A DNA stretch of 64,000 nucleotides, from positions 358,112,001 to 358,176,000 of the forward strand of contig NW_027362762.1 of assembly GCF_046119375.1 (NCBI RefSeq). The letters are read 5' to 3'. This DNA comes from Phyllobates terribilis (Eukaryota). Shown here piece by piece: positions 1 to 44,972 of this stretch. A program made the position numbers and the translations under genes. Under the pieces are notes generated by a model that saw only the letters and a program-made list of their open reading frames with translations, had not been told where the DNA came from and searched no databases. Each line of letters begins with the position of its first letter. The first letter of the stretch is position 1.

Positions 1-89
1 TTCATGTGCGGGAACCACGACTATTCGCCTCTACAGTGATGCCGGTGACCTCACCCACAGGTGTACGTACCGGTCACCACCGCTCCGGG

Positions 90-370
90 ATCTTTACATC
101 ACGTCCAGTTAGGCCGCAAAATGTGACGTCAGCGACTTCCGGGGATAAAGCGACGACTTGTTACATAACGCAGCGATAAAAGGAAACGTCAGGGCCCCCA
201 GCACAAGTACAGCCAGTGCCCTCCCCCAACATGGAACCACTGCCCACCGCTCATCGGCGCTGTTTGCGGAAGTGATGTACGCAGGTGACGTCATGAAACT
301 GGTCTCGTGTCTCTCCCCCCCCCCCACTCCTGTCACGTGACTGTAGTGCTTACCTCCAGAGAAGTGAGTT
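90..370. promoter_or_regulatory. CpG-rich promoter-like region (candidate first exon/promoter of FAM172B, possibly shared with a divergent upstream gene)
   Basis: High CpG density, TGACGTCA (CRE-like) motifs at ~124 and ~286, ETS-like ACTTCCGG at ~136, candidate + strand donor GAA|GTGAGT at 364. Gene assignment is inference. Confidence 0.4.
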
Positions 371-458
371 ACTCTGTTTGATGGTTGTTGTGGCCATAGT
401 GCCGGGCGGTATAAGTATGTGTGTGGCGTGAGGGTCTCATCACCTGCTCAGTGCACAC

Positions 459-591
459 NNNNNNNNNNNNNNNNNNNNNNNNNNNNNNNNNNNNNNNNNN
501 NNNNNNNNNNNNNNNNNNNNNNNNNNNNNNNNNNNNNNNNNNNNNNNNNNNNNNNNNNNNNNNNNNNNNNNNNNNNNNNNNNNNNNNNNNN
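459..591. other. Assembly gap (133 N)
   Basis: Run of N. Confidence 0.99.
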
Positions 592-644
592 ACACGTCTA
601 TATGCCGTATACACACACATCACACAATATTGTCAGTACTTGCC

Positions 645-845
645 CCCCCCGCCACCTGTACCTATCACCAGTCCCTGCCGCCCGCCACCTGTACCTACCA
701 CTAGTCCCTGCCGCCAGGCCCTGCTGCCCGCCACCTGTACCTATCACCAGTCCCTGCCGCCCGCCACCTGTACCTACCACCAGTCCCTGCCGCCAGGCCC
801 TGCTGCCCGCCACCTGTACCTACCACCTGACCCTGCCACCCGCCA
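645..845 (+). repeat. C-rich minisatellite, ~33-bp unit (CCCGCCACCTGTACCTA(T/C)CACCAGTCCCTGCCG variants)
   Basis: About 5 degenerate tandem copies visible. Confidence 0.85.
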
Positions 846-1071
846 GCAGTCATGCCTGCACCACCTCTTTTGCTTAGAAGTTGTTGATGAAGTGCAGTTT
901 TCTAATTCGGCTGAATTGAGCCAATGGCTTGAAAAAACAGATATAAATGGAAGAAAAAATCTGGTTCCGGGAAATAGAAGTTTCCAAAAATATTTTTTAT
1001 TCGTAGAAAAATAGTTCAAAACAGTACAGGCAATGAAATAAGATTCGATGGGAAAATCACATCATAAGAAC

Positions 1072-1116
1072 CAGCTACGCGTTTCGAGCATGTTGCTATG
1101 CTCTTTGTCAAAGCTG
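1072..1116 (-). ncRNA. Variant minimal type I hammerhead ribozyme (3' pseudo-LTR)
   Basis: Minus strand CAGC-T-TTGACAAA-GAGCAT/agcaac/ATGCTC-GAAA-CGCG-TA-GCTG gives stem I, variant core, 6-bp stem II, GAAA, palindromic stem III and a GUA site. Confidence 0.75.
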
Positions 1117-1472
1117 ATAAACTGATGGTCAGACAAGGTATATATATACTGGACTGCCAATCAGGAAAGCAGGTTTGAAACGTGAGCATTATATCAAGTC
1201 ACACATGAAGAATAATAAACTAATTAAAATACAGAAGGAAAAAGACAGGAAAAAACTACCATACAAAATTACAGTACAGACCAAAAGTTTGGACACACCT
1301 TAAAGATTTTTCTGCATTTTCATAACTTTGAAAATTGTACATCCACACTGAAGGCATCAAAACTATGAATTAACACATGTGGAATTATATACTTAACAAA
1401 AAAGTGTGAAACAACTGAAAATATGTCTTATATTCTAGGTTCTTCAAAGTAGCCACCTTTTGCTTTGATGAC

Positions 1473-2659
1473 TGTAACGCGCCCCCTGGGCCGTGGGGTA
1501 CCCAGTCCCGGGCCGGCAGATGCTGGGGGTTGTAGTCACTGTGGCGGTGACCCAGGGCGGTCAATACAAGGGGAATGATATGTATAGGTTTTTATAATGT
1601 CCGACTACACCACCTGTGGAATGCGGCTAAAGGGGGCCGCCGCTGTGGAACAGTCCTCTGAAGCTGGTGGTTTTGCAGCAATGATGGTATAACTCCCCAC
1701 AGGAAGAGTTAGCTCCAGGGCAGTGTGTGGATGATGGTGGTTGTGCTGGGCGTTGTAGTGCAGTGAGGGATGGCGCAGCAAAGAACACAGAGACAAGATA
1801 GTGCAGTCCCAGGGTCTTTACTCACAGTTGTTGCAGTCCAGATAACAGGTACCAGAGCAATCTCCCCCGTCGTGCTGTGCGTACTCAGTGAGGGGCTCTG
1901 TCCACCCCCAGATAGCTCTGGAGTACTTAGCAGGACCCCCTTCTGTGTCCTTTCTCTGGCCTCTTTCCTGCACCTCACACCTAGTGACTCCAATCCGGTA
2001 CCCGCGGGCCTTGGCAGGCGACATATGTTCCGTCCCCTGGGTCCTATGTGGCTACCTTCTCGGTGAGACTGGCGTGGACTTTTGGCTACAGGACTTAAAG
2101 TACTGCAGCCTCCGGTTTCTAGCTAAGACTTGCAATCTTTCACTAGTTGATGGATCCGGTTCCCTTCTTCTGGCCTGACCCCTCCACCTCCCGGCAGATT
2201 CGGGCGTACGGGTGGCCTCCAGCGCTGCTCGTACCCCTGGGATCCCTTCTTCCTGGAGCCTTCCTGCTCCCTCTCCTCTCCTTCTCTTCAGACTTGGGCC
2301 TCACTGTACAGGCCCGCCTCTGGAGCAGAGCTCATACAGAGCCTCGGCTCCTGTCACTTCTCCTCCTGTGACTGGCTGAACTGAACTAAGATGGTTTCCT
2401 ATTTATGCTCTCCCTGTCATGTGCTCCCGTAAGCTACCTTCTCCACGCACACCCACTACATAGTCCCCTCCCGCCAGCTAGGGAACCTGGAACTGTGCTT
2501 TCCCTTAGGAGCAATATCGCCCTACCCCCACTGCGGGTATGTGTTGGATGCAGGTGTTAGGGTCCTGAGCTGTACTCCTTCCTTACCTGAGGGTGAGATA
2601 CCACACCTCTGGGTGAGATGCAGTACCTCTGTGGCGACTGAACCCTCAGGGGCGCCACA
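1473..2659. mobile_element. Solo LTR (Gypsy-like), ~1.19 kb, inserted in the Tc1 left TIR/transposase C-terminus
   Basis: TGT...ACA termini with short inverted ends (TGTAACGCGCCCC / GGGGCGCCACA). Flanks rejoin to the Tc1 sequence seen intact in the right TIR (4722-4770). Confidence 0.75.
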
Positions 2660-3417
2660 ACTGCTTTGCACACTCTTGGCATTCTCTTGATGAGCTTCAA
2701 GAGGTAGTCACCGGAAATGGTCTTCCAACAATCTTGAAGGAGTTCCCAGAGATGCTTAGCACTTGTTGGCCCTTTTGCCTTCACTCTGCGGTCCAGCTCA
2801 CCCCAAACCATCTCGATTGGGTTCAGCTCTGGTGACTGTGGAGGCTAGGTCATCTGGCATAGCACCCCATCACTCTCCTTCTTAGTCAAATAGCCCTTAC
2901 ACAGCCTGGAGGTGTGTTTGGTGTCATTGTCCTGTTGAAAAATAAATGATGGTCCAACTAAACGCAAACCGGATGGAATAGCATGCCGCTGCAAGATGCT
3001 GTGGTAGCCATGCTGGTTCAGTATGCCTTCAATCTTGAATAAATCCCCAACAATGTCACCAGCAAAGCACCCCCTCACTATCACACCCCCTCCTCCATGC
3101 TTCACGGTGGGAACCAGGCATGTAGAGTCCATCCGTTCACCTTTTCTGCGTCGCACAAAGACACGGTGGTTGAAACCAAATTTGGACTCATCAGACCAAA
3201 AGCACAGATTTCCACTGGTCTGTTGTCCATTCCTTGTTTTCTTTAGCCCAAACAAGTCTCTTCTGCTTGTTGCCTGTCCTTAGCAGTGGTTTCCTAGCAG
3301 ATATTTTACCATGAAGGCCTGCTGCACAAAGTCTCCTCTTAACAGTTGTTGTAGAGATGTGTCTGCTGCTAGAACTCTGTGTGGCATTGACCTTGTCTCT
3401 AATCTGAGCTGCTGTTA

Positions 3418-4280
3418 GGCTGAGTTCACACGATGCGTATTTCATGCGTTTCCGCGGCATTTTTGCAGTTGCGTAAACGCCGTGGAAACGCATGAAAAAA
3501 CGCATGGTAGAAGGGAAGCAATGTTCCCCAATTGAAATCCGCATGTGCTGTGCCCATGATGCGGATTTTTCCGCAGCGTAAACGCTGCGCTCAAAAATCC
3601 GCAGCATGTCATTTAATTTTGCGGAAACGCGGCGTTTTCGCCGCCATTGACTTGCATTAGAACGCGCCAATTCCGCAAGACTGCATCTGTACTTGCGTTA
3701 TTGGCGCGTTCTAATGTGCGGATGGTACCCGAGTGTGGAGGAGAGGAGAGTCTCATCCACACCCAGGTACCATTAAAAAAGCTGTAAAAAACAAGAATAA
3801 AATAAAAAAAAAAAATATATATATATATATATATACTTACCATCTGTCGGCCCGCGCACCGCTCCTGCTTGCTTCCCGGCACTTGCAGTGAGTTGTAGGA
3901 CCTGCGGTGACGTCAGAGTCATGTGACGGGTCACGTGACGCTGACGTCGGCAGGTCTTTCAATTCAAAGTTGCTGGCAGCTGGGAGAACGGAGTGAGCAG
4001 GACAGCGCGGGCCATCGGAGGTAAGTATATACACTCTCTCGGGTCACACTATATAAATCCATGCTGTTTGCATGGATTTATATAGTGTGACCTAGTTGTC
4101 AAGACATTTCCAGGTGATGCTAAAATCGCCTGGAAAGCGCTTGTCAATCTGCATGTGGAAACGCATGTGGATCCGCATGTATTCTGCAGGAAAAACGCAT
4201 GCACAATCTGCATGCGTTTTTTTTCTGCCAGGGAGATGCAGAAATTTTCTGCTTCATTTCTGCATCGTGTGCACATAGCC
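3418..4280. mobile_element. PIF/Harbinger-type MITE (863 bp) inserted in the Tc1 transposase
   Basis: TTA TSD on both sides (3415-17, 4281-83). TIRs GGCTGAGTTCACAC / GTGTGCACATAGCC. Flanks rejoin as GCTG-TTA-ACCTG. Confidence 0.85.
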
Positions 4281-5024
4281 TTAACCTGCGATTTCTGATG
4301 GTGGTGACTCGGATAAACTTATCCTCAGAAGCAGAGGTGACTCTTGGTCTTGCTTTCCTGGGGCGGTCCTCATGTGAGCCAGTTTCTTTGTAGCGATTGA
4401 TGGTTTTTGCAACTGCACTTGGGGACACTTTAAAAGTTTGCCCAATTTTTCGCACTGACTGACCTTCATTTCTTAAAGTAATGATGGCCACTCGTTTTTC
4501 TTTACTTAGCTGCTTTTTTCTTGCCATAATACAAATTCTAACAGTCTATTCAGTAGGACTATCAGCTGTGTATCCACCTGACTTCTGCACAACACAACTG
4601 ATGGTCCCAACCCCATTTATAAGGCAAGTAATCCCACTTATTAAACCTGACAGGGCACACCTGTGAAGTGAAAACCATTTCCGGTGACTACCTCTTGAAG
4701 CTCATCAAGAGAATGCCAAGAGTGTGCAAAGCAGTCATCAAAGCAAAAGGTGGCTACTTTGAAGAACCTAGACTATAAGACATATTTTCAGTTGTTTCAC
4801 ACTTTTTTGTTAAGTATATAATTCCACATGTGTTAATTCATAGTTTTGATGCCTTCAGTGTGAATGTACAATTTTCAAAGTCATGAAAATACAGAAAAAT
4901 CTTTAAATGAGAAGGTGTGTCCAAACTTTTGGTCTGTACTGTATGTTTGAACATTCCAAAAGAATAATATGAAAGCATACAAAAAATCAAGACATGCAAA
5001 TATATAGAATAAAAGGAAATTCAC

Positions 5025-7423
5025 TTAGGTATAATGATACATAATCTCCCGACGTGCATTAAGACCATTAGGATGATCGCAAAATGCTTCTCTGGTAAGA
5101 AGATGTCGTCTGCGATCGCCCCCTCTCTGCATATGCTTAAGCCGTTCAATACCAAACACTTGTAAAGCATGGGTGTTTCTCTGATGTCGTTCAATAAAAT
5201 GTTTAGAAGCATGTGAAACATTCCGATTACTGCTACAAAGAGAAAAAATATCAGTCAAGTGTTCAGAAATACGGTCTTTCAATCTCCTGATGGTACATCC
5301 TACATAGATCAATTTACACTCCTTACATGATATAATATAAACCACTCCTCTAGTATTACAATTGATATATGTCTTAATGGGGAATGATTTGGTATAAGAG
5401 GAATTGAAAAACTCTTTTGCTGGAATCATGTGGCTGCACGTGCGGCATTTAGCCTGACCACAACCATAAAATCCCTGAAAGTTAAGCCATGTGGTCCTTT
5501 TTTTGACTGAAGAAAACAGAGATGGGGACAACACGTTGCCAATGGTTTTCCCTTTACGTGCTACAACAGAACACCCTGAATTTAAACTCTTAGATAAAAT
5601 GGGATCTTCAAATAGAATGGGTAAATGTTTGATTTAATCGCTGAAAATTCAGTACTATATTGTAGGGATAGAACCAATTTGTTTTTCTGTACCTTGCTAT
5701 TCCCATCGTGACGGACAATGTTATGTCTGTCTTTATTCTGTGATGTTCCGTTCCTGTTGTTATGAATATCAATATCTGAGTTATTCCCACTGACAATGTG
5801 TTGGCCCCTATTAAAAATCCATTTCGGATAACCACGTCGGATGAAATTGGTTTTAGAGCTGGATAATTCACCATCTAATATTTGTGCATTATTGCAATTT
5901 CTTGCTATATGTGTGAATTCACCCACTGGCACTGCTTTTATTGTGTGACGTGGGTGACTACTACTAGCATGCAAAATGGTATTACCAGAAAGAGGTTTAC
6001 AATAGGTACTTGTGGCAATGTTTTTATTAGAGATGCCGCACAAATTTAAATCCAAAAATGAAATATTATTTTTCTGGTGCTGATATGTGAAAGTAAGATT
6101 ACAATGATTGATATTCAAATAATGTATAAATTCGGGTATGGGAGATACATCGATGACCAACTCATCATATGGTCTGGCGATGTATCTGCCATACCAATAA
6201 ATATGTCCCAAAAAAGGATTGTCACAATACAAATAGCTCTCCTCCCAATAAGCCATAACCAGATTTGCCAACGAAGGTGAATATTTTGTCCCCATAGAAA
6301 CACCCCTGATTTGTATGTAAAATTGGCCATCGAAGGAGAAGTAATTAACTGTCATTAGAACGTCAACAACCTGTATGACAAAATTGCAAAGATCTGGTGA
6401 ATATTTACTGTAATTACCCAAATGGAAAGACAACGCCTCGAGAGCAATTTCCGGTGGAATAGATGTATATAGAGCAACAATATCACAGGAGATCCAACTG
6501 TAGTTCTCCTGCCACACTATATGGGATAGCTGCTCCAGAACATCACCTGTGTCCTGTAGAAAGCCGGGCGTCCTCTGTGACAGAGGCTGCAACAAGGAGT
6601 CCACCCACTCGCCCAGTGTCTCAGAGACTGAGCCGATACCCGATATAATGGGTTGCATAGGTGGAGGAGTGATCCCCTTGTGCACCTTGGGCAAAGCGTG
6701 CATGAATAGGGGTGACTGGAAAATCCACCTGCATATAATCACATTGGGTTTGAGTTAGAATGCCCAAAGACAAGCCATCCTGCTGGATATTGTTAATTTT
6801 TGTGGCAATATTTTTGACTGGATCACACTGCAATTTCATATAGGTGGTGGAATCACTTAATAGTGTTAGAATTTGGCATCTGTAAACATCTGAGTCCAAA
6901 ACAACCACCAGGCCGCATTTGTCAGTCATACGTGTCACAATATGATCCATATCTCGCAATTCTTGCAAAGCTTTTTGTTGATTTTTAGACAGATTGTGTT
7001 TTTTGTGATGTGTGCGATCACTATATGCCAGAATCCTAAATTCTCTTTCCATGGTTTCCTGGAACCGGTCCATACAATCAACACTGGGTTGAAGAGGATA
7101 AAAAAAGGGGTTCTTGGTTACAAAGGACGTCGCCTGCGATATTAATTCAGGTGCTGATGATTGATCTTGTAAATTCTGCAATTGTAATAGAGCCTTTTGT
7201 TCTTCAAATTTTAAAAGTCTATATTCATTTTTGATTGGCCGGGTGGAAACGTCCATTTGTGGTTCAGATTCAGAAAAAAAAATTTTTTTTTTATAGTCAC
7301 ATTGCGTATAAATTTATTGAGGTCAATGAGAGTAGAAAAAAGGTCAAAGTGTCTGTCTGGTACAAAAGAAAAACCCAGTGATAGGACTTCGTCCTGATCT
7401 TTAGCTAGTATCTGTTTTGACAA
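5025..7423 (-). pseudogene. Penelope-like RT-GIY-YIG polyprotein, frameshifted into several ORFs (7211-7423, 6621-7256, 5582-6742, 5025-5534)
   Basis: LSLGFSFVP N-terminal motif, RT palm motifs, thumb (HASSSHP..TIKAVPVGEF), GCGQAKCRTCSH linker, GVVYIISCKECKLIYVGCT..RLKDRISEH endonuclease. Confidence 0.88.
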
Positions 7424-7490
7424 ATTGAGAACGTTTGAGGTGTATTCATTTATGGTCGTTGCTTGCGGCGAGTTGTCATACCCGCAGGAT

Positions 7491-8216
7491 TTAATATGTT
7501 TGCGGCCACCTCTCCTTTTGCATTTTTTGCATATTTAGAAGCTTTTGCTTTACGATAATATGATGGCTTATTCCTATTTTCCACATCAATATTGATATCA
7601 TCCATTGATTCCTGATCTGAAGAACTAAATGAAACATGTAATTATAGTTATTTCTTCTTTTTAAGATTGATTTAGGTGAGAGGGAGGTACGAGACCATCT
7701 ACCCCATTCATACACTTGATGTGAAGCATAATCATTGCTGTCCCTGAGGAATTTGTCTTTTTTCCTCATCCTGATAGTAGATTCCGTTTTCTCCACCATA
7801 GAATCAATGCGTTTATTAAAGTCCTGATAATCAGGTTTATCTTTATGTTGTTCCAAGGAGGCATGAATATTAGATATTTCAGTTCGTAAGCTGTTAAGCT
7901 TCGAATCCTCTTGTTTAACAAAGAGTCTCATCAAATTCATGGAACAACCCGTCAATATTTGATTCCAATCGGTGACAACATTTTCTGAATAAATAGTAGT
8001 CGGAATCTTTTTTATTCTGAGGCCTCTTGGGATCATATTTTTTTGCAAATAATTTGTAAGTGTAGTTTGATCCCACCACACCTTCATCTCACTAAGCATT
8101 AACTTCTCGAGCTGTTTAAATAGCAAAGTCATATCATTTGAAACGGGTGTCTTCAGGGGATCAGAAGAAAAAACACTCTCAGCTTTTCTAAATCGTTCAG
8201 CCTGAGAACACGCCAT
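7491..8216 (-). CDS. Upstream ORF (ORF1-like, 241 aa) of the Penelope-like element
   Basis: Intact long ORF between the 5' pseudo-LTR and the RT frames, with WWD..L..YL...MIPRGLRI motif and a predicted coiled-coil-like region. Confidence 0.65.
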   Translation of the reverse strand: MACSQAERFRKAESVFSSDPLKTPVSNDMTLLFKQLEKLMLSEMKVWWDQTTLTNYLQKNMIPRGLRIKKIPTTIYSENVVTDWNQILTGCSMNLMRLFVKQEDSKLNSLRTEISNIHASLEQHKDKPDYQDFNKRIDSMVEKTESTIRMRKKDKFLRDSNDYASHQVYEWGRWSRTSLSPKSILKRRNNYNYMFHLVLQIRNQWMISILMWKIGISHHIIVKQKLLNMQKMQKERWPQTY

Positions 8217-8629
8217 TTGCTAATTCAGAAAAAAACTGCACCAATAAATATTCTGTTTTGAGTCTTTTGATTTTTTTAAATGGAGCTGTGAAAAAAACAA
8301 AAAAATCTCTTCAGGAAAAAAAGTGTATTTTCAATATTACTACAAGAACCTGCTGGTTCAAAAAAATGGGATTTCTGTGAGCTCGAAAAAATGACCAAAT
8401 ACAAGATAGAAAGTAAAAATAATTCAGCTCACCTGGTTCTCACATGCTCCTGATGCAGGGAAGCCCGGTAACGTGCGGTCTCACGTAAAAGGTAACAATA
8501 TAACTGGAAGAAAAAAACGGCTTCCGGGAAATAGAAGTTTCCAAAAAGATTTTTTTATTCGTAGAAAAATATTTCAAAACAGTACAGGCAATGAAATAAG
8601 ATTCAATGGGAATATCACATCATAAGAAC

Positions 8630-8674
8630 CAGCTACGCGTTTCGAGCATGTTGCTATGCTCTTTGTCAAAGCTG
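8630..8674 (-). ncRNA. Variant minimal type I hammerhead ribozyme (5' pseudo-LTR)
   Basis: Identical motif to 1072-1116. Confidence 0.75.
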
Positions 8675-9413
8675 ATAAAAACCAGGACTTCACTGGCACA
8701 GGGTTATTGCCATGAGGCGAGCTATTCCCGAGCCCCTTACCACAGGGACCCACCGATGCTGAGCATAGAGTTCTGAGACGCCCCATTAGATTGGAGCGGT
8801 GGTCATACATGTTCACAGCCGCCCCATTCATTGTGGAATTGTCAGTGTGCCGTAGAGTATGTGTGTGTGGCCACTGCTCCAGTCACTGTCTGACAGAGGC
8901 AGCCGGGTACAGCACTCGCCTATCTCCTGCAGTCCCATAGACAATGAGTGGAGTGGTGGCCACACACTGTCACATCTGTTTTTCCCTGAACAGTGAATGG
9001 TGCGGCTATGAGTATGCCTGGTCACCACACCAATCTAATGGGGCATTACAGAACTCTACTTTCAGGATCAGTGGGGTCCTGACTCCCATTGATCAGTGGG
9101 ATGACATCTATCCTGTGGCTAGGTAATGTCTTGGTATGGTGGGAATAACCCTTTCAATCCCTTGCCTCTACAGTGCTCTTCACAGACCTATAGAAGTAAA
9201 CAGACTGGTGGGCAGCACAGGAGCAGCAGAGGACTCATCAGGTAAGTAATTAGTCTTTTGTTATTTTATACCACTTACTCTCTTTACCCTAATATTTGCC
9301 AATCCCCTGAAAACCTCTTTTAATACTTGTATTGTTAAGTGGCCAGTCAGACATTGTATTCATTTACATTTGAGCCAAATTTCTCACTCTGATACTTAAA
9401 CACTAGAATCCAT

Positions 9414-10199
9414 TAAAGAGGTTTTCCAGTTTGAGAAAACCCCGGTCCCCTAGCTGCAGTTGGTTTTAAAAAGGCAATCTGTGCTTTACTCTCCCTCCTA
9501 GGGTCCAGTTCTGCGTCTCCTCCGCTGTTCCCAGTGTCTGTTATTGTCTGCAGCACTAACGTCACGTCAGCAGCCAGTAACTGAGCTCTGCCCAAGATGA
9601 CAGCACAAACCTCGAAACCCACTGATTGGCTGCAGCGCTACTGTTGTGATGCCGGCGCTGCAGACAATAACCATCAGTGAGCTCATCGGTTCATGCTGTC
9701 AACTTGACCAGAAATCCGTTTTTGGCTCCCTTGCTGTGGACGTGATGTTAACACTAACTAAAACAAACAGCAGGGAGACAACATTGGACCCGGGGAGGGT
9801 GAGTAAAGAACAATTGTTTATTTGTTCTTTTTTTAAACAAATTGCAGTTGAGAGGTTTTTTTTTTAAAACTGGAAAATTCCTTTAAAGAAGCACTCCCAT
9901 CAAAATGTGTTTTATTCCCTTAATATATTATACGTGATTTAAAACGGACTTGCTGAATCCTTCTAATATCATCTCAAAAGTCCCTGGCAGGGGGGCGGAG
10001 GAGGGAGCAGCTGGGTCAGGAGTTGAACAGGGGAATGATAAATTCAGGGAAAAGAGACTTCCTGTTTCTACATAAAGAGAAGAATTATCTGTATAGAAAG
10101 GCGAAATGAGCAGTTGTAAGTACATAGTGCCATATAATATGATGACTGCAATATATTAAGAGGATAAAAACTTTGATGGGAGGTGGAGTGCTTCTTTAA
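9414..10199. mobile_element. Two adjacent T2/Kolobok-type MITEs sharing a TTAA site (~9414-9886 and ~9886-10199)
   Basis: TTAAAGAGGTTTTCCAG...CTGGAAAATTCCTTTAA, then TTAAAGAAGCACTCCCATCAAA...TTTGATGGGAGGTGGAGTGCTTCTTTAA. Confidence 0.75.
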
Positions 10200-10615
10200 G
10201 CATATATAGTTTGTTACTGGGTAACAGATATTACCTTCTTATTTCCCCACTTTTCACGTTATTTTCTGTCTGAACATTTTACAAATAATTAATATTAGTT
10301 ATGTAAATAATGTTATGCCTACATACAGAGGAAGTACAGGTGAAGCCTCTTTTAAATTAGCACATATCACGATGCAGAACTCTTAAGACACCACAAGCCA
10401 TTGAACTTGTAAAGTTAGGTGTTGAGTTACACTTTTTTGCATTGAGATATGTTTGTCTTTTAAGAAGTGCTACATTTGAATATACCATCTGCGGCCTCCT
10501 TCCACAGGGGCAGCAGACTGCAGCTGAGGGTGGTCATTTAGTAACACATGGGTATATAGGGGCACGGCTAGGGTGTACAGGCCTTTTGGCATTTACGCTG
10601 TAATGGCCTATGCTT

Positions 10616-11009
10616 AAATGGAACCTGTCACCATGATAATGCAGACACCATGTTATACAGCAGGAGGAGCTGATCATATAGGTTTGTTGGAAAAGATTCT
10701 AAATTACCTGTGCTTTAATCCTATAATCCTTTGCTCTTTCTGGGATTTTGGGTCCACTGGGCGGTTCCATCAGTGACTGACAGTTAGCCCCGTATGCACA
10801 CTTATACAGAGAAAGCTGTCAGTCACTGATAGGACCGCTCACTGGACTGAAAATCCCAGAAAGATCAAAGGATTATATGACTAAAACACAAGTTATACTG
10901 AATCTTTTCTCACAAAACTATATATCAATCTTCTCAGCTCCTCCTGTTCTATAACAATGTGCTGCCTGCAAATTGGACTGTATTATCATAGTGACAGGTT
11001 CCCTTTAAC
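10616..11009. mobile_element. T2/Kolobok-type MITE
   Basis: TTAAATGGAACCTGTCAC...GTGACAGGTTCCCTTTAA termini and an internal palindrome. Confidence 0.75.
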
Positions 11010-11523
11010 ATGTACTGTATAACTCATGGAAAGCTCATATTGTGGCATCCATCCCCCAAAGCATACCATATACTGTGATGAATACATTCTTCTGTAGTAG
11101 TCCCTGCAAAGAAACAGCGTGTATACTATACCACTCCATAGGTTTTTTTTTATTTTTCCTCTGGTGTACTGGCCAGACGAAGTCCACTCTATGTAACCCT
11201 ATAGATGTGTAGCGTATCCATTAGCTTTCCTGGCATACATGCTAAGCATGATGTAAATGGGGCCTTACTTCCATTATGGCAGCGTAAGACCCTCTTTTTC
11301 AGCAGTTCAGATCACAAATGTAAGAGCTGGGCGACTTCGCCACATTATGGAGGAGCTGGAAAGGTCCTCCATGGTTTCTTCTGTTCTTGCCTCCTCTTCT
11401 GCAGTCCCCGAATGTTTTTGTCCTCTACTCCTCATGCAGAGCGACTCGCATCTAGAGCTGCCTATGGTAGTACAGTGTTCCCTGTTACATCATGGCTGTG
11501 TTACATTTGATGGTGGTAGAAAC

Positions 11524-11842
11524 CAGGGCTGTGGAGTCAGTAAGCCAAACCTTTGACTCCGACTCCTCAATTTCCCTGACACCAACTCCCTCATACATGG
11601 CTCATGTTTAAGTGATAAATTTACTGTAGGACACATTTTTCTCAGCTAAAAGTCTAGACCCTTAGATCAGGAATAGGACAGACATTTATAGGACATTTCA
11701 TAACTTTCCCAAATTCTTATGAAAAAAATATTCCCCACAAACTGCATTGAACTACTGTACCCAATTTATTATATATTTTAGGAGTCTGTCCATTTAATGC
11801 CGACTCCAACAAAATGGGCTCCGACTCGACTCCACAGCCCTG
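11524..11842. mobile_element. hAT-like MITE (CAGGGCTGTGGAGTC TIR family)
   Basis: TIRs CAGGGCTGTGGAGTC / GACTCCACAGCCCTG. Homologous to the copies at 21522, ~25982 and 46764. Confidence 0.8.
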
Positions 11843-11850
11843 GAACACTT

Positions 11851-12950
11851 TAACCCCTTACTGGCCTGGGGCGTATTAGTACGCCCCATGCCATCACCCC
11901 CGGTTCAGTGAGGGCTCCGGTGCTGATCCCGCACTGAACCTGCAACAGCCGCGGGTTGAATCGCGATCCAACCGCGGCTGTTAACCAGTTAAATGCCGCT
12001 GTCAATCTCTGACAGTGGCATTAGCCCCGCCCATCGGTGACCCTGTCACATGATCGCTGGTCACCGATGCGTGGGCATGACAACCTGGGGTCTGCAGCAG
12101 ACCCCCGTGGTTGTCATGTCTCACTTGCTATGAGCGCCACCTAGTGGTCGGTGCTCATAGCACATGAGCATTTCCGCTACACAGAGGCGATGAGCAGATC
12201 GCATCAGACAACTGCAGCTTCTAGTCTCCTATGGAGACTATAGAAGCATGCAAAAAGTGGGGGAAAAAAAATGTTTTTAAAAATATGAAAAAAATAAAAG
12301 TTTAAATCACCCCCCTTTTTGTCCCATTCAAAATAAAATAATAATAAAAAAAAAACCTACATGCACATATTTGGTATAGCCGCGTTCAAAATCGCCCGAT
12401 CTATCAATATAAAAAAATAATTAATCCGATCGGTAAACGGCGTAACAAGAAAAAAATTCTAAACGCCAGAATTGCGTTTTTTTGGTCGTCGCAACATTGA
12501 AATAAAATACAGTAACATTCGATCAAAACATCGGATCTACCCAAGATAGTATCAATAAAAACGTCAGCTCGACGCGCAAAAAATAAGCCCTCACTCGGCC
12601 CCAGATCACGAAAAATGGAGACGCTACGGGTCTCAGAAAATGGTGCCATCTTTTTCTTCTAATTTTAGCAAACTTTGGAGAATAATGATGGCAGTTCAGT
12701 TTTAGCATTCGGTGAACGTGGTAAAAAAAACAAAAAAACAACAACTGTGGAATTGCATTTTTTTTTTTGCAATTTCACCGCACTTGGAATTTTTTCCCGT
12801 TTTCCAGTACACAATATGGTAAAACCAGTGATGGCATTTAATAGTACAACTCGTCCCGCAAAAATTAAGCCCTCACATGGCCATATTGAACGAAAAATAA
12901 AAAGGTTATGGCTCTGGAAAGAAGGGGAGTAAAAAATGAAAATGCTCCAG
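11851..12950. mobile_element. Non-autonomous piggyBac-like (TTAA-CCCCTT) element, right end truncated
   Basis: TTAACCCCTTA start. Internal sequence is homologous (inverted) to 53330-54180. Confidence 0.65.
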
Positions 12951-17433: not shown

Positions 17434-17630
17434 TATATAACACTGGGTTGGACACAAGGTATAAAACCTAGATTGAATTTTTTGTGAGCAGATTCTTTAG
17501 TAAGTTACATTTTAATTATTGCCTCACGAAGCATTCTTGTGAATTTAGGATTAAACTGACATACAAACACCTATGTTAGCTGCTAGTTTACCAAGCTTAA
17601 AGCATGTCAATTCTTTCTTTTTACTTAGAT

Positions 17631-18698
17631 ATGATGGAAGGACTGATGAGATTTACTTCAAGTCTACAAGTTCCTTCTAGTCTGGAAGACTTGCAGTACT
17701 CTTTCAATGAGCATGGAGAGTTGAGGCATTTGGTCACCAAGGAACCATTTGTCTACAATTACTACAAAAAAGAACATGAAAGAAATCACAAACGTTACAA
17801 AATGCTTGGAGATATAATCACGCTTCATATCTATGAACTACTTGAAAAACAACTCAACTTTGACAGAATTACTATTCCTATTGATGCTAGCGATGAAGAA
17901 CCAAAGTCATTCTTCTTCATGAGTAGGGAACCATTGAGTAATCAGAAAAAATTGTTCGTACTTCTTCAAGATAGAGGGGTAATCCGAGCCGGACAGTGGA
18001 GCCAAAAGGTCATAGTCCATCACTCTCTAGACAGAGGAACCCAGATCCCATATATCACCTCTGCTTTAAGAGACAACAGCTCAGTAATTGTCCTTAACCC
18101 CAATGACAATTTTGTGGAGATGAAAGAAGACACACAAGCTCTTGTCAAAAAAGAAGATGCTGTCTGTGTAGAAACCAGGGATGCATGTAATGTGTCTACA
18201 GATAAGAAGCTTGCTTTCCCTAAAAGATGTTGCACTTCTCCAGAAGAACACACCAACTATGTCTGGGATCACTTTATTTCGAGAAGTGCAGCTACGAATG
18301 TGTCATTTATTGCCCATGGGTATGGTGGCTTAGTGTTTATGGATTTGCTTAGTAAGAAAAGCCAAGAGGTCATGAGTAAAGTGACTGCTGTGGCTTTCAT
18401 AGATTCTAGGCATCATGCTCAGCATCAGACAAGAACTGACCCCGAAATATGGACTTGGATACGCTCACACTGCAGAAGCTGGGTATTAAGTGCCAAGCCG
18501 TTAGACAGACCTACTGGGTGTTTAAGAAAACTGGATTGTTACAAGGTATCTGCCGGAACTGAAAAATATGATCTTGCACCTTCTTGTGCTCTTCAGTCTA
18601 TTTTCCGATTTCTTAGTAGATCTTCAAAAAGTCGTCAATATTCAGTTCCCCCGGTACGCACAATGGTAACTAGAAGTTCAGTTAGGAAGTCAGTGTAA
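17631..18698 (+). CDS. FAM172B: FAM172/ARB2-family protein (FAM172B/ARB2B-like), single coding exon, ~355 aa from Met 17631
   Basis: Similar to FAM172A/ARB2A (YSFNEHGELRH, GVIRAGQWSQ, RGTQIPYI, VLNPNDN, YVWDHFI, AHGYGG, KVTAVAFIDS, VSAGTEK). Acceptor TTTTTACTTAG at 17628. Position upstream of TRMT10C and PCNP matches the human FAM172BP locus. The true start may lie in an upstream exon. Confidence 0.85.
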   Translation: MMEGLMRFTSSLQVPSSLEDLQYSFNEHGELRHLVTKEPFVYNYYKKEHERNHKRYKMLGDIITLHIYELLEKQLNFDRITIPIDASDEEPKSFFFMSREPLSNQKKLFVLLQDRGVIRAGQWSQKVIVHHSLDRGTQIPYITSALRDNSSVIVLNPNDNFVEMKEDTQALVKKEDAVCVETRDACNVSTDKKLAFPKRCCTSPEEHTNYVWDHFISRSAATNVSFIAHGYGGLVFMDLLSKKSQEVMSKVTAVAFIDSRHHAQHQTRTDPEIWTWIRSHCRSWVLSAKPLDRPTGCLRKLDCYKVSAGTEKYDLAPSCALQSIFRFLSRSSKSRQYSVPPVRTMVTRSSVRKSV

Positions 18699-27352: not shown

Positions 27353-28769
27353 ATTAATAACATTTGGTTTTACCTTGTTAACACAACACACATTCATAGT
27401 CTGATGTACTCGGCACAACTTACACATACCTCCAAATTATAAATTCATACTGTACATCAGTAAAACCAAAGTCATTATTATCATTACTATAACTAGGACT
27501 CTAGATAATTCCTTGCGGGGTGTAGTTTCCAAAAATTGGGTCACTTTTGGGGTGTTTCCCCTGTTTAGGCACATCAGGGGCTCCCCAAATGCGACATGGC
27601 ACCCGTAAACCACTCCACCAAAGCCTGCAATTAAAACGTCACTCCTTCCTTTTGCAGCTCGGCAGTGTCTCCAAACAGTAGTTTTCCTCCACATATGGGG
27701 TGGTATCGGTGTACTCAGGAGAAATTGCACAACAAATTTTGGGATCCATTTTTTCCTGATACCCTTGTGAAAATAAAAAAATGGGGCTAAAATAACATTT
27801 TTGTGGAAAAAATGTGATTTTTTTTATCTTCATAGCTCAACGTCATAAATTTTTGCAAAGCACCTGGGGTTCAATGTGCTCACCGTACATCTAGATAAAT
27901 TCCTTGAGGGGTCTGCTTTCCAAAATGGGGTCACTTGTGGGGAGTTTCCACTGTTTAGGCACATCAGGGGCTCTGCAAATACAACATGGCGTCCGCTATT
28001 GATTCCAGACACTTTTGCGTTACAAAAGTCAAACGGTGGTCCTTCCCTTCCGAGTGCCCAAACAGTAGTTTTCCCCCACATATGGGGTATCAGCGTACTC
28101 AGAAGAAATTGCCCAACAAATTGTATGGACCTGAGCATGACAGCGTGATGCTGTCACGCTCAGGTCCGCATAGCAGACAGCCAATCCGAGGATTGCGAGT
28201 AATATGGCAGTCTGACTGAATCAGTGACGTCAGTGCCAGGTTGAGCGGGAATATGGGTGGGGGAAGGAGGGAATATATTAATTTCGCATGTACTTAAGCT
28301 TGACTTGCTGGCGTGCGAGTATAAATTTTCCGGGACTTACAGCAACACAAAGGGGCAACAAAGCAATAAAAGTTACATAGCCTCAAAGGGCTGCCCGAGC
28401 TCTATTTTAGGATACTATTGGTATGGTACCAAAAAATAACATGACAAATTCCCTTTAAAGGGTTAAATCAGCAGTAACATCCTGTATCACACAAATTTCA
28501 CAGCCATTTCTGACTACAGATGACAAAGTAATCCAAAATGGTGATGTTTGGTGATGGCAGCATAGCGAAACAAGGTTACAGGGGGATCGGCTGCTGCTAT
28601 CACATGTGCTGCTGGACACTGAGCATAAGTATGTAACTTACACCAGTGCTCAGTATACAGCAGCGTACAATAGGTTCTGTAGTGGTGTCCCCACTGCAAA
28701 ATGAGACCCTGCTGTAGAGTGATCACTGATATAAGGTGTATTTAGACACACAGACTGCATATACTACAG

Positions 28770-31700
28770 CTATATAGGTGTACAGAGCCTACTCTATACG
28801 TTACACAGTAGGTATATAGGCGTGCAAAGCCTACTCTATATGTTACACTGTGGGTATATAGAAGCACAGAGCCTACGCTATACGTTACACTGTAGGTATA
28901 TAGGAGTACACAGCCTACTCTATACGTTACACTGTGGGTATATAGGAGTGCACAGCCTACTCTATACGTTACACTGTCGGTATATAGGAGTACAGAGCCT
29001 ACTCTATAAGTTACACTGTCGGTATATAGGAGTACACAGCCTACTCTATATGTTACACTGTGGGTATATAGAAGTACACAGCCTACTCTATAAGTTACAC
29101 TGTCGGTATATAGGAGCACAGAGCCTACTCTATACGTTACACTGTCGGTATATAGAAGCACAGGGCCTACGCTATACGTTACACTGTAGGTATATAGGAG
29201 TACACAGCCTACTCTATACGTTACACTGTAGGTATATAGAAATACACAGCCTACTCTATACGTTACACTATGGGTATATAGGAGCACAGAGCCTACTCTA
29301 TACGTTACACTGTGGGTATATAGGAGTACACAGCCTACTCTATACGTTACACTGTAGGTATATAAAAATACACAGCCTACTCTATACGTTACACTGTAGG
29401 TATATAGAAATACACAGCCTACTCTATAGGTTACACTGTGGGTATATAGGAGTACACAGCCTACTCTATACGTAACACTGTGGGTATATAGGAGTACACA
29501 GCCTACTCTATAAGTTACACTGTCAGTATATAGGAGTACACAGCCTTCTCTATACGTTACACTGTAGCTATATAGGAGTACACAGCCTACTCTATACGTT
29601 ACACTGTGGGTATTGTAAGGCAGCGCTAGTCATCATAATGGGGGTTACTCGCTGCACCGGGTCAATTAAGGCACATAAGCAATGTATTTACGCTTTTCTC
29701 ACAATGTTGCAGTTTATTACATAATAAGCCACAGTTCACCGGGTCCAACTCCGTGGCACGCCGACACACATATCTACAATATTCATGAGACAAGTGGCAC
29801 ACAGGCCCACTTGCTCCAGGTTACAGCCTACGGCAAGGTAATAAATTATCAATGTCCATAACACAGTCCATGTAACAAAGTGTATTACCTTTGCCGGGTT
29901 TTAGCTGCTACAGTCCGTTTATTCCGCCACCACTGTGGCTTTGCGGCTTTCCCAGGTGGGGGTCTCTAGCCGTCGTCCCCTCGTAGGCTACTGGTATGTC
30001 TTCCACACTTGACATCCAGCCTGCGCCTTTCAGGGTTCTTCACCAAGCCGGCTCTCCCTCAAAGGCCACTGACATCCACGCACAGGATCCAGGCTCGGCC
30101 TTTCAGGCTGCCAGGCTTCACTCTCGGCCTCCGTAGGCCTCTCACAAACGGTGTCCCACACACACGGAGCACAGGCCTCACGCCTCACACACCTGTCTCA
30201 AATTACCAGGGTTTATATATCCTGTGCACACACAAACTGACAGGACCTTGCTGATGTCACAGTCATGTGATCAGTCAGCAGTGTGTATAGGTCCTGTGTG
30301 CTGTCCCAGTCATGTGTACAGACCTTTACTGTGCATACAGGACCTGTGTGATGTCACAGTCATGTGACCAGTCACCTGAGGGGAGAGGTATATGGTCAGG
30401 TAAAACACATCCTAGACCATTACCGTAATGCAAGCACGTCGCTGCATTACAGTATATAGGAGTACACAGCATACTCTATACGTTACACTGTCGTTATATA
30501 GGAGTACAGAGCCTACTCTATAAGTTACACTGTCGGTATATAGGAGTACACAGCCTACTCTATACGTTACACTGTGGGTATATAGGAGTGCACAGCCTAC
30601 TCTATATGTTACACTGTGGGTATATAGAAGTACACAGCCTACTCTATACGTTACACTGTCGGTATATAGGAGTACACAGCCTACTCTATACGTTACACTG
30701 TGGGTATATAGGAGTACACAGCCTACTCTATACGTTACACTGTCGGTATACAGGAGTACACAGCCTACTCTATACGTTACACTGTGGGTATATAGGAGTG
30801 CACAGCCTACTCTATACGTTACACTGTCGGTATATAGGAGTACACAGCCTACTCTATACGTTACACTGTGGGTATATAGGAGTACACAGCCTACTCTATA
30901 CATTATACTGTGGGTATATAGGAGTACACAGCCTACTCTATACGTTACACTGTGGGTATATATAGGAGTACACAGCCTACTCTATACGTTACACTGTGGG
31001 TATATAGGAGTACACAGCCTACTCTATACGTTACACTGTCGGTATATAGGAGTACACAGCCTACTCTATACGTTACACTGTGGGTATATATAGGAGTACA
31101 CAGCCTACTCTATACGTTACACTGTGGGTATATAGGAGTACACAGCCTACTCTATACGTTACACTGTCGGTATATAGGAGTAGACAGCCTACTCTATACA
31201 TTACACTGTCGGTATATAGGAGCACAGAGCCTACTCTATACGTTACACTGTCGGTATATAGGAGCACAGAGCCTACTCTATACGTTACACTGTCGGTATA
31301 TAGGAGTACACAGCCTACTCTATACGTTACACTGTGGGTATATATAGGAGTACACAACCTACTCTATACGTTACACTGTGGGTATATAGGAGTACACAGC
31401 CTACTCTATACGTTACACTGTCGGTATATAGGAGCACAGAGCCTACTCTATACGTTACACTGTCGGTATATAGGAGTAGACAGCCTACTCTATACGTTAC
31501 ACTGTCGGTATATAGGAGTAGACAGCCTACTCTATACGTTACACTGTCGGTATATAGGAGTACACAGCCTACTCTATACGTTACACTGTCGGTATATAGG
31601 AGTACACAGCCTACTCTATACGTTAAACTGTCGGTATATAGGAGTACACAGCCTACTCTATACGTTACACTGTGGGTATATAGGAGTAGACAGCCTACTC

Positions 31701-34700
31701 TATACGTTACACTGTCGGTATATAGGAGTAGACAGCCTACTCTATACGTTACACTGTCGGTATATAGGAGTAGACAGCCTACTCTATACGTTACACTGTC
31801 GGTATATAGGAGTAGACAGCCTACTCTATACGTTACACTGTCGGTATATAGGAGTACACAGCCTACTCTATACGTTACACTGTGGGTATATAGGAGTACA
31901 CAGCCTACTCTATACGTTACACTGTGGGTATATAGGAGTAGACAGCCTACTCTATACGTTACACTGTCGGTATATAGGAGTAGACAGCCTACTCTATACG
32001 TTACACTGTCGGTATATAGGAGTACAGAGCCTACTCTATACGTTACACTGTGGGTATATAGGAGTAGACAGCCTACTCTATACGTTACACTGTCGGTATA
32101 TAGGAGTAGACAGCCTACTCTATACGTTACACTGTCGGTATATAGGAGTACACAGCCTACTCTATACGTTACACTGTCGGTATATAGGAGTACACAGCCT
32201 ACTCTATACGTTACACTGTCGGTATATAGCAGTACACAGCCTACTCTATATTTTACACTGTAGGTATATAGAAGTACACAGCCTACTCTATACGTTACAC
32301 TGTCGGTATATAGGAGTACAGAGCCTACTCTATACGTTACACTGTGGGTATATAGGAGCACAGAGCCTACTCTATACGTTACACTGTGGGTATATAGGAG
32401 TACACAGCCTACTCTATACGTTACACTGTCGGTATATAGGAGTACACAGCCTACTCTATACGTTACACTGTCGGTATATAGGAGTACACAGCCTACTCTA
32501 TACGTTACATTGTCGGTATATAGGAGTGCACAGCCTACTCTATACGTTACACTGTGGGTATATAGGAGCGCACAGCCTACTCTATACGTTACACTGTCGG
32601 TATATAGGAGCACAGAGCCTACTCTATACGTTACACTGTGGGTATATAGGAGCACACAGCCTACTCTATACGTTACACTGTGGGTATATAGGAGTACACA
32701 GCCTACTCTATACGTTACACTGTCGGTATATAGGAGTACACAGCCTACTCTATACGTTACACTGTCGGTATATAGGAGTACACAGCCTACTCTATACGTT
32801 ACACTGTCGGTATATAGGAGTACAGAGCCTACTCTATACGTTACACTGTGGGTATATAGGAGCACAGAGCCTACTCTATACGTTACACTGTGGGTATATA
32901 GGAGCACACAGCCTACTCTATACGTTACACTGTGGGTATATAGGAGTACACAGCCTACTCTATACGTTATACTGTCGGTATATAGGAGTACACAGCCTAC
33001 TCTATACGTTACACTGTCGGTATATAGGAGTACACAGCCTACTCTATACGTTACACTGTGGGTATATAGGAGTACACAGCCTACTCTATACGTTACACTG
33101 TGGGTATATTTAGTACACAGCCTACTCTATACGTTACACTGTGGGTATATATAGGAGTACACAGCCTACTCTATACGTTACACTGTGGGTATATAGGAGT
33201 ACACAGCCTACTCTATACGTTACACTGTCGGTATATAGGAGTACACAGCCTACTCTATACGTTACACTGTCGGTATATAGGAGTACACAGCCTACTCTAT
33301 ACGTTACACTATCGGTATATAGGAGTACACAGCCTACTCTATACGTTACACTGTGGGTATATAGGAGTGCACAGCCTACTCTATACGTTACACTGTCGGT
33401 ATATAGGAGTACAGAGCCTACTCTATACGTTACACTGTGGGTATATAGGAGCACACAGCCTACTCTATACGTTACACTGTGGGTATATAGGAGTACACAG
33501 CCTACTCTATACGTTACACTGTCGGTATATAGGAGTACACAGCCTACTCTATACGTTACACTGTCGGTATATAGGAGTACAGAGCCTACTCTATACGTTA
33601 CACTGTGGGTATATAGGAGCACAGAGCCTACTCTATACGTTACACTGTGGGTATATAGGAGTAGACAGCCTACTCTATACGTTACACTGTGGGTATATAT
33701 AGGAGTACACAGCCTACTCTATACGTTACACTGTCGGTATATAGGAGTACACAGCCTACTCTATACGTTACACTGTGGGTATATATAGGAGTACACAGCC
33801 TACTCTATACGTTACACTGTGGGTATATAGGAGTACACAGCCTACTCTATACGTTACACTGTCGGTATATAGGAGTACACAGCCTACTCTATACGTTACA
33901 CTGTCGGTATATAGGAGTAGACAGCCTACTCTATACGTTACTCTGTCGGTATATAGGAGTACACAGCCTACTCTATACGTTACACTGTCGGTATATAGGA
34001 GCACAGAGCCTACTCTATACGTTACACTGTGGGTATATAGGAGTAGACAGCCTACTCTATACGTTACACTGTCGGTATATAGGAGTAGACAGCCTACTCT
34101 ATACGTTACACTGTCGGTATATAGGAGTAGACAGCCTACTCTATACGTTACACTGTCGGTATACAGGAGTACACAGCCTACTCTATACGTTACACTGTCG
34201 GTATATAGGAGTACACAGCCTACTCTATACGTTACACTGTCGGTATATAGGAGTACACAGCCTACTCTATACGTTACACTGTGGGTATATAGGAGTACAC
34301 AGCCTACTCTATACGTTACACTGTGGGTATATAGGAGTAGACAGCCTACTCTATACGTTACACTGTCGGTATATAGGAGTAGACAGCCTACTCTATACGT
34401 TACACTGTCGGTATATAGGAGTACAGAGCCTACTCTATACGTTACACTGTGGGTATATAGGAGTAGACAGCCTACTCTATACGTTACACTGTCGGTATAT
34501 AGGAGTAGACAGCCTACTCTATACGTTACACTGTCGGTATATAGGAGTACACAGCCTACTCTATACGTTACACTGTCGGTATATAGGAGTACACAGCCTA
34601 CTCTATACGTTACACTGTCGGTATATAGCAGTACACAGCCTACTCTATATTTTACACTGTAGGTATATAGAAGTACACAGCCTACTCTATACGTTACACT

Positions 34701-43330: not shown

Positions 43331-44972
43331 CAGTGCTGGCTAGAAGTGACCTCTGCAGGAGCTGCCGGTGACCTTCCTAATGCCCACTAAGGCATCTGCT
43401 AGGCACAGCCACATCGTGCCCCTAGTGTCAGCAAGTAACCCCTTCCCTCTCGGGCAATTGGTTGTTTTTCACTTCCCATGTTCCTTCCATTCTTCTTAGA
43501 GGCCTCACTGTTTTGTGGATACAGCCATATGGGGGCTTGTTTTTTGAGGACAAGTTGTAGTTTTGAATAACACCATTGTCCCATCAATTGGCTCAAAAGA
43601 CGGGAAAAGTTGGGTGAAATAGTGAGAAAAGCCCTTCATTGCTGTTTGGTGTTTTGTTACGCTGTTCATTGTTCAGTAAGAAAAGAGCGGGAAATGGTCG
43701 GTGTGATTATGGCAATGCCTTGGGCTACTGATGAGTTGTTTGTGACCCGTCCTGCACAAAGTGCTGGCTCTTTTCTGTGAATGATGGGAGCCGGCAACCC
43801 CCTTCCAAGTATAGGTGCTCGGTGCACCATGGTGTGGTCAAACATTTAAAGGGATCCTGTCATGTAAAATAACGCTATTAACCTGCAGGTATGGGATTAA
43901 TCTGCAGGTTAATAGTGTTCTGATACCACGCGACTACCGCACTGTGAACCTCGCTATCGGGAGAAAATGAACTTTATTCCCCCCGGCAGCCTCGCTCTTT
44001 CAGCCACAGTGGTGGCTGTCAGTCTTTTTTAATTATGACCCTTCGTCAATTAGGGCCATGTCTATAATGTAATGTATTAATGATGGATGTTTAACAATAA
44101 GATATGCCTAATTCATTAAGAGGCACACGCCATTTGGCGAATTAGGCACATTTTATCACTGGCTTAATCCTTGCCGGATCTGTTACTCCAGTCATGGACA
44201 CCACAATTTTTAATGACTTTGCCATGCTCCATAATGCCCCAGATCCAACTATTTTGGCAGACCTGGCCAAAACTGTCAATGAAAACACCAAAGCTTGCAA
44301 ATTTTTTGCACATCCTCCTAAACACCTTGATAGACCGGAGCCGATATTGCTGACCTCATAATTATGTTGACAGAAAATAAAAATGTCTAACTCTTAAAAA
44401 AAAAAAAAAAAAAATGCAGTGATGAAAAAATAGAAGCTTTTGCAAAATCACTCCCCAAAAAAGTGCATTTTAAATTTATCTATAGATTTTATTGTAACAT
44501 CTAGCTGCTGCATTTTTAGCCTCGAAAATTGGAAATGATCAATAGGAAAATCTCAGCTTTTTTTTTTTGCACAACACCATGATTATAGTATTTTGAGTAC
44601 AGGATGCGTGATTTTAGCTAGATGAGACTTGTGCGGCAGCAGAATCATGCAATAAAATCTGTATTTAGCAGTATTCATATTTGCAGACCCCAAAAAAGGA
44701 AGCTACACACTATAAAAGTACATTATTCTGCACCTAGTCACATGCAAATACCACAAGAATGTAGCATAAATGTGCATTGGCGCATAATGGATCTATGGTC
44801 GGAGGTCATTGGGATTGGCCATCTGTATACAGGCCTCCTTGCTCTCACTGATGAAGGCACATGCTGGAACCTATTTTATTACTATATTAGTTTAAACTTG
44901 CATTTTATTTTATGCAGTATTTTAAAATAATCTTTCTGTTTTCTTTCAGTCTAATTTTCACAAAGCCTGGAC

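Follow-up and report, generated by a model that had tools for sequence, protein, structure and literature searches.

The locus described here raises the question of what use a retroelement makes of a self-cleaving ribozyme placed at both of its ends, and in particular whether the RNA that is copied back into DNA has been cut. The window, that is, the whole stretch of DNA analyzed, comprises 64,000 nt of Phyllobates terribilis (NCBI RefSeq assembly GCF_046119375.1, contig NW_027362762.1, positions 358,112,001 to 358,176,000). On its minus strand, between 8679 and 936, lies a Penelope-like element (PLE) whose two direct repeats, or pseudo-long terminal repeats (pseudo-LTRs), each carry a hammerhead motif. 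A preliminary description of the locus recognized the element and both ribozymes and suggested that cutting at the two sites would release a ~3.9-kb unit RNA that could circularize. Most copies of the family have their 5′ end at the front edge of stem I, not at the cut site, and it is likely that the window copy derives from an uncut and unspliced RNA that began at the front edge of the 5′ hammerhead, with a TATA box setting the start and with cutting a rare event.

The direct repeats (936–1121 and 8494–8679) are 186 bp long each, rather than the ~175 bp first given, and share 94.65% identity across 187 alignment columns, with the 66 nt that bear the motif (1056–1121 and 8614–8679) being identical. 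Each minus-strand motif consists of stem I, UUGACAA, an extra A, a 6-bp stem II closed by a G-C pair, GAAA, the palindrome ACGCGU, and A17, with GUA as the cleavage triplet. The 5′ motif spans 8628–8676 (U3 at 8669, extra U at 8670, A17 at 8634, predicted cut 8634/8633), and the 3′ motif spans 1070–1118 (U3 at 1111, A17 at 1076, predicted cut 1076/1075). The assignment of identical minimal type I hammerheads to both pseudo-LTRs is thus upheld. Stem I, initially given as CAGC/GCTG, is present as a 6-bp stem, AUCAGC/GCUGGU, and the extra U before U3 had been overlooked. The combination of UUGACAA and GAAA, which had been called non-canonical, is the U3-A8 form of the core, a covariant already published, with ~1,300 matches among Schistosoma PLE hammerheads (PMC4209133). 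The same source gives a base between 9 and 10.1, a G10.1-C11.1 pair, and a palindrome as common in PLE hammerheads. By sequence, the window motif is the minimal type I hammerhead of metazoan PLEs in its U3-A8 version. From cut to cut the distance is 7,558 nt, or 3,886 nt after subtraction of a Tc1 insert (1272–4941) and one TA; the ~3.9-kb size therefore stands, while no positive evidence was found for release or circularization of such a unit, an old hypothesis in itself (PMC4209133).

Start and end points of family copies

Two sets of family arms were read. The first comprised 94 arms at loci picked in part by the core pattern, reduced to 90 by dropping four segmental-duplicate rows; visual inspection led to six rows being reclassified as inverted and to one start being shifted. 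Of these 90 arms, 54 start between 13 nt before and 8 nt after U3 (20 of them at −4, the mode) and 17 run into the body. The others start further upstream (6), inside the ribozyme (2), at the cut (1), or downstream (10), and one of the six that stop further upstream does so because a Tc1 lies in its TATA box. Among the non-inverted truncated arms, 15/24 fall within a 22-nt interval (P 3e-11 against a uniform distribution).

The second set was picked without regard to the ribozyme, by a 19-mer just 3′ of the cut that has 117 matches in the whole genome, 113 of them preceded by A17. Among the 100 matches listed of these 117, 83 places were read, using one of 18 near-identical copies from a duplicated block, and 81 arms were kept after removal of one duplicate and one chance match (L193, which was dropped as a family copy). 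At G000:C8:280.2-281.6 Mb, a block with family pieces is repeated 18 times with 40–160-kb spacing and forms a large tandem segmental array. In the second set 53 of the 81 arms start between −13 and +8, 18 run into the body, and 3 start further upstream, so that the 5′ ends do cluster at the motif, as the preliminary description had proposed to check. Four more arms start at +16 to +19, none at +20 to +35, and three at +36, the predicted cut. For one named base among 28, the probability of such cut-site starts is 0.0014 (3/7), or 0.017 if two are counted (2/6); the two clean ones are the solo insertions L194 (G000:C3:889757867) and L196 (G000:C5:246290277). A few family copies (2–3 of 81) thus appear to record the predicted cut. 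The boundary of the window element was said to coincide with the ribozyme, which is correct for the front edge of stem I; the cut lies ~40 nt downstream of that boundary. Likewise, the 5′ copy does start just upstream of stem I, at 5 nt before CAGC (10 nt before U3) instead of the ~4 nt estimated earlier.

Several head-to-head joints of the family are perfect palindromes centered on AGCT at −4 to −1. In other families, the cores are 4–9 nt apart in four of eight opposed neighboring pairs, hand-picked from the first 100 canonical places, which indicates that the same edge recurs there. The 3′ ends fall into two classes, with 43 of the 90 arms of the first set ending at +160 to +185, 44 at +250 to +282, and 3 elsewhere; 21 of 22 inverted pairs combine one short and one tailed arm. 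These classes match the two start sites of reverse transcriptase (RT), with a tail, described for a lizard element (PMC11167929), and one-sided tails are also described in PMC8557442 and PMC3846280.

Upstream of the 3′ hammerhead lies a predicted family promoter (1139–1161, minus strand), with ATTGG (a CCAAT box) at 1161–1157 and the TATA box TATATATATA at 1148–1139, the first T of which is 37 nt before U3. The 3′ copy thus has a TATA box ~31 nt before the modal start, which is the A of a CA step. Genome-wide, TATAWA occurs 30–42 nt before position 3 in 3,360 matches versus 104 at a control distance of 60–72 nt, where forward-strand counts include TA runs more than once; the corresponding reverse-strand counts are 1,484 and 34. 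Among nine coarse families with RT or GIY-YIG upstream, a TATA box is found at this spacing in six, in none in four upstream control windows, and in one downstream. When all 36 coarse groups are taken, many of them truncated, the box is present in 10 versus 2–4 in control windows. Most other families have directional TATAAA or TATATAAG boxes. Drosophila Penelope is already known to start transcription within its pseudo-LTR (PMC2377424); no link between the position of a TATA box and that of a ribozyme was found in the literature covered, which did not include subscription journals.

Conservation of the core and register of stem I

The exact pattern of the window core has 54 matches in the genome and its reversal none, so the core is not a chance occurrence. 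An Rfam scan of 1–12000 at E ≤ 10, the covariance-model search proposed in the preliminary description, gave 14 matches, none of them to a hammerhead. Exact core patterns in the 10.6-Gb genome number 6,050 for C3-G8, 1,093 for U3-A8, and 416 for mixed forms (7,559 in total), versus 0–2 for reversed patterns. Independence of positions 3 and 8 would predict about 220 U3-A8 cores, although these counts are of copies, not of independent events. At least 7,559 minimal hammerhead cores, with a common ACGCGU palindrome, are thus present genome-wide in dozens of families. Many of them have a TATA box 30–42 nt upstream, often with CCAAT- or GC-box-like motifs beyond.

Across 48 clusters, 180 of the 192 stem II cells are paired, against an average of 94 and at most 110 in shuffles; for the U3-A8 clusters the figure is 67 of 76 cells, against an average of 44 and at most 55. 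A set of 12 hand-picked motifs gave a covariation score of 0.795, reached by none of 500 shuffles and by no slid control (≤0.14). The covariation that had been sought as a check is therefore present, and it shows the fold to be under selection across families; inside the window element's own family, stem II is nearly invariant. The window motif has the extra A at 9.1, and all 12 aligned motifs have the G10.1-C11.1 pair, although both features belonged to the search pattern. The palindromic helix III has a self-duplex energy of −9.5 kcal/mol as an 8-mer, and a dimeric hammerhead is not the predicted minimum-energy co-fold.

The extra U between stem I and U3 is shared by the window family and its sisters; it may bulge, may pair with G in a U-G wobble that leaves a C bulged, or may pair with A17. 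In the monomer fold, A17 pairs with it at a probability of 0.98, 2.1 kcal/mol below the open form. A direct register, with stem I closing on position 3 by at least two Watson–Crick pairs, is seen in 26 of 29 C3-G8 clusters; among the 19 U3-A8 clusters, 7 have the direct register and 6, the window family included, are shifted by one. Sister families with a shifted register have C or U at H17, so pairing with H17 is not all that explains the extra U. This also weakens the notion that the window family merely lost H17, given that the sisters keep the extra U. By tying up A17, the extra U may damp cleavage.

Template of the window copy

Because the boundary of the window element lies ~40 nt upstream of the cut, its template was uncut at both ribozymes, unless it was a circle whose departure point happened to coincide with that of the short copies. 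In the reading that we favor, transcription would begin at stem I, directed by the TATA promoter that an upstream copy carries in its 3′ end. RT would then start internally, either ~170 or ~265 nt downstream of U3, and copy as far as the 5′ end of the RNA, yielding short stubs, head-to-head pairs, or a full-length copy that lacks a promoter. For the window insertion, the 3′ ribozyme would have been read through and the 5′ ribozyme kept whole, with neither cut and the promoter lost. Cutting would be rare, as the palindromic stem III needs a partner and A17 can be held by the extra U; where it did occur, it would remove the first 40–48 nt together with the cap. The ribozyme would accordingly be, in all likelihood, a slow off-switch or a processing step and not an obligatory source of template. 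The roles given here to the promoter, to loss of the cap, and to dimer formation are inferences. Cleavage can promote cap-independent translation (PMC13725137), a possible alternative use of a 5′ cut.

Several points weigh against this reading. The untemplated G expected before the 5′ end from copying of a cap occurs in 3/15 cases, without enrichment. The 5′ ends are scattered over ~20 nt, and the copies descend from a few masters and are not strictly independent events. Only two cut-site starts are clean, the third (L195, G000:C4:580705475) being an ambiguous fold-back centered on an AGCT palindrome that covers A17. The RT itself is identified from a weak Pfam match and motifs. Finally, a start-site model does not by itself account for promoter-bearing partial tandems such as L192. 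At this locus (L192/L191, G000:C1:353294000-353312900), a truncated body and a ribozyme are followed by 2.5 kb of a second copy, and an inverted arm lies ~10 kb away. Such a tandem could be rebuilt by insertion into the pseudo-LTR of the element itself (PMC11167929), by a template jump, or by a rare circle, any one of which would be enough.

A broader version of the favored reading strikes us as an outside prospect worth stating. In it, the PLE hammerhead of this vertebrate genome would form the opening 45 nt of the transcript, set at a constant distance behind a TATA box in many unrelated families, and would be a dimer-gated decapping switch, damped in this lineage by the extra U. The genome would record its rare cutting, and rare double cutting with circularization would rebuild promoter-bearing tandems out of promoterless progeny.

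The release of a circle is improbable as the routine source of template and may at most be a minor, rare route that rebuilds promoter-bearing partial tandems and the tail. The model calls for cleavage at both ribozymes, ligation of the 3.9-kb unit, and passage of RT round the circle, a sequence of events to which the cut-site starts in 2–3 of 81 arms, the more-than-unit tandem L192, the covarying core and stems, and the circles demonstrated for related short retrozymes (PMC7229834) all lend some credit. The dominant edge does not fit, as the place where 53 of 81 arms and the window element stop, ~40 nt upstream of the cut, would have no meaning on a circle. Ribozyme mutants leave insertion in vitro unaffected (PMC11167929), and eight of nine frog retrozyme dimers failed to cut in vitro (bioRxiv 10.64898/2026.07.22.740005).

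About equally doubtful is the idea that the family motif no longer cuts and is kept as a fold, for RNA dimerization through ACGCGU, protein binding, or stopping RT, with the 5′ edge marking an RT exit or an AGCT join in place of a start site. The stable pairing of A17 with the extra U, the palindromic AGCT joints, and the unseen cap G all agree with this idea. Yet RT would come into the fold from the 3′ side, so that stalling there ought not to yield a copy of the entire fold. Solo copies without a fold-back have the same edge (the 15/24 noted above), and the 4/8 hand-picked pairs with closely opposed cores come from families without AGCT. The fixed TATA spacing, the clean starts at the cut, and the retention of A17 in 113/117 matches also speak against it. 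Self-priming on an antisense transcript from a TATATATA promoter active in both directions has been put forward for rotifer elements (PMC3846280). It would agree with the symmetric family TATA, the head-to-head pairs, and the predicted intron retained in the window element, but is very improbable, since neither the sense 5′ ends lying 31 nt behind the TATA box nor the sense cut-site starts are among its predictions and since most other families have the directional boxes described above.

Anatomy, surroundings, and known relatives

The PLE assignment made in the preliminary description is borne out by a GIY-YIG domain, RT pieces, and pseudo-LTRs. Apart from the micro-inversion noted below, the parts of the element read on the minus strand. 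The 5′ pseudo-LTR (8494–8679) begins 10 nt before U3 and lacks a TATA box; a predicted 147-nt intron in the 5′ untranslated region follows (8286–8432), with a CAG/GTGAG donor, a pyrimidine tract, and an AG acceptor, and is kept in the DNA. Its splice signals recur at the same spacing in the sister copy L192. Contigs from two runs of uncertain kind cover pieces of the element and contain no splice joint, data that cannot reveal splicing or RNA ends. An upstream reading frame of 242 aa (7491–8219) has no Pfam match below E 0.007 and no usable Atlas match. The putative RT region (5582–7534) is broken into three frameshifted pieces (7211–7534, 6621–7313, and 5582–6754). Its Pfam RVT_1 match, at E 0.022, is under the cut-off, and an RT piece gave no matches in the PDB; it also contains a DKG-like motif. 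A micro-inversion at 6136–6194 (59 bp between 17-bp imperfect inverted arms), whose sequence runs opposite to that of sister copies, disrupts the catalytic YIDD region. Downstream, a CxxxxCxxC linker and GIY-YIG endonuclease (5025–5633; Pfam PF01541, E 3.8e-7, above the cut-off) follow, the linker reading CGQAKCRTC and also being found in L192. The 3′ pseudo-LTR (936–1121) stops at +176, in the short class of 3′ ends of the family, and has no tail. No target-site duplication was found on searching the window element and L196.

The order of RT and C-terminal GIY-YIG, the pseudo-LTRs, the inverted 5′ copies, and the tail on one end are those of endonuclease-bearing PLEs. The unit is coding and 3.9 kb long, and its stubs are solo or inverted, with no head-to-tail stub arrays among the loci read, which sets it apart from non-LTR retrozymes. 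By its sequence features, the window element is a decayed endonuclease-bearing PLE, a dead copy split by a Tc1. The Cys linker points to the Neptune or Nematis clade, the latter also having a Cys-rich linker (PMC8557442), and the vertebrate host makes Neptune the likely one. Differences between the two pseudo-LTRs, when asked whether they are older than the insertion as a test for a circle, proved mostly private with a few ambiguous; the chance probability of the identical ribozyme block (P 0.025) is not interpreted.

The Tc1-type DNA transposon (1272–4941, minus strand) is a later insert with a TA duplication, terminal inverted repeats identical at 197/201 positions, and nested inserts of its own. 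One of these (1474–2659) resembles a solo LTR, and another (~3418–4281) holds many short hairpins with weak miRNA-like Rfam scores. At L103 (G000:C3:837276804), a Tc1 with the terminal repeat of the window Tc1 sits in the TATA box of a family copy. A second Tc1-type transposase fragment is found at 55075–55737 (plus strand; DDE_3, E 5e-15), and short inverted-repeat elements resembling miniature inverted-repeat transposable elements lie beside the 5′ end of the PLE (8743–9081, 9413–9886, and 10614–11008). The PLE, just past a CpG-rich stretch (1–460), is upstream of and antisense to two host genes. One, at 17601–18698 (plus strand; Pfam E 1e-65), is an Arb2-domain frame resembling FAM172-like genes, and the other, at 44955–46232 (plus strand; E 4e-34), is a single-exon frame for a tRNA m1G methyltransferase resembling TRMT10C. 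Between them, a 14-kb minisatellite array (~28700–42700) yields long repetitive open frames.

Much of what the window family displays is already in print, including PLE hammerheads, the U3-A8 covariant, the circle idea, and uncut templates. Metazoan PLE hammerheads (Cervera and De la Pena 2014, PMC4209133) likewise come as two motifs in pseudo-LTRs ~3–4 kb apart, have no real helix III, carry a palindrome at 15.2–16.2, the extra base at 9/10.1, and G10.1-C11.1, and include the U3-A8 form. That study also reports thousands of solo motifs in a frog and puts forward cleavage followed by circularization; its available text does not contain the extra U before U3, and TATA spacing and 5′-end counts are added here. 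In the Neptune clade (Craig et al. 2021, PMC8557442), the RT, Cys linker, C-terminal GIY-YIG, pseudo-LTRs, and inverted 5′ copies with a tail on one end are shared, as is, with a killifish Neptune (PMC12602865), an upstream frame of unknown function. Unlike these elements, the window copy is frameshifted, has its catalytic motif inverted, and contains a Tc1. Rotifer Pen2a_Av and Drosophila virilis Penelope (PMC3846280, PMC2377424) resemble the window family in having a start site, or a putative TATA plus initiator, in the pseudo-LTR, palindromic head-to-head joints, and a 5′-UTR (untranslated region) intron, a predicted one in the window element. Drosophila Penelope differs in its TATA-less internal promoter and in having the ribozyme behind the intron (PMC2377424), and neither source, in the text available, ties a TATA box to ribozyme position. 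Animal non-LTR retrozymes (PMC7229834, bioRxiv 10.64898/2026.07.22.740005) share the type I hammerhead, a dimer-type stem III, and pseudo-LTR kinship; they are non-coding tandem units of 170–400 nt with demonstrated circles, whereas the window element is coding and its stubs are solo or head-to-head.

A further parallel is Poseidon PAc of the green anole (Frangieh et al. 2024, PMC11167929), which has two internal RT start sites, an optional tail, a pseudo-LTR hammerhead dispensable for insertion, and uncut RNA as its main template. PAc belongs to another clade, its tail is 30–40 nt versus ~90 nt in the window family, and its open reading frame starts inside the ribozyme, whereas in the window element a predicted intron and the upstream frame follow the ribozyme. 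For PAc, no reads ending at the cut were found; in the window family, two to three genomic copies start there. The role of the hammerhead in PLEs has been called unclear (PMC8557442). The window family offers a countable genomic read-out, in which most templates were uncut and began at the ribozyme edge and a few percent were cut at the predicted bond, a pattern that supports the in vitro result for PAc (PMC11167929) and argues against circles as the routine template.

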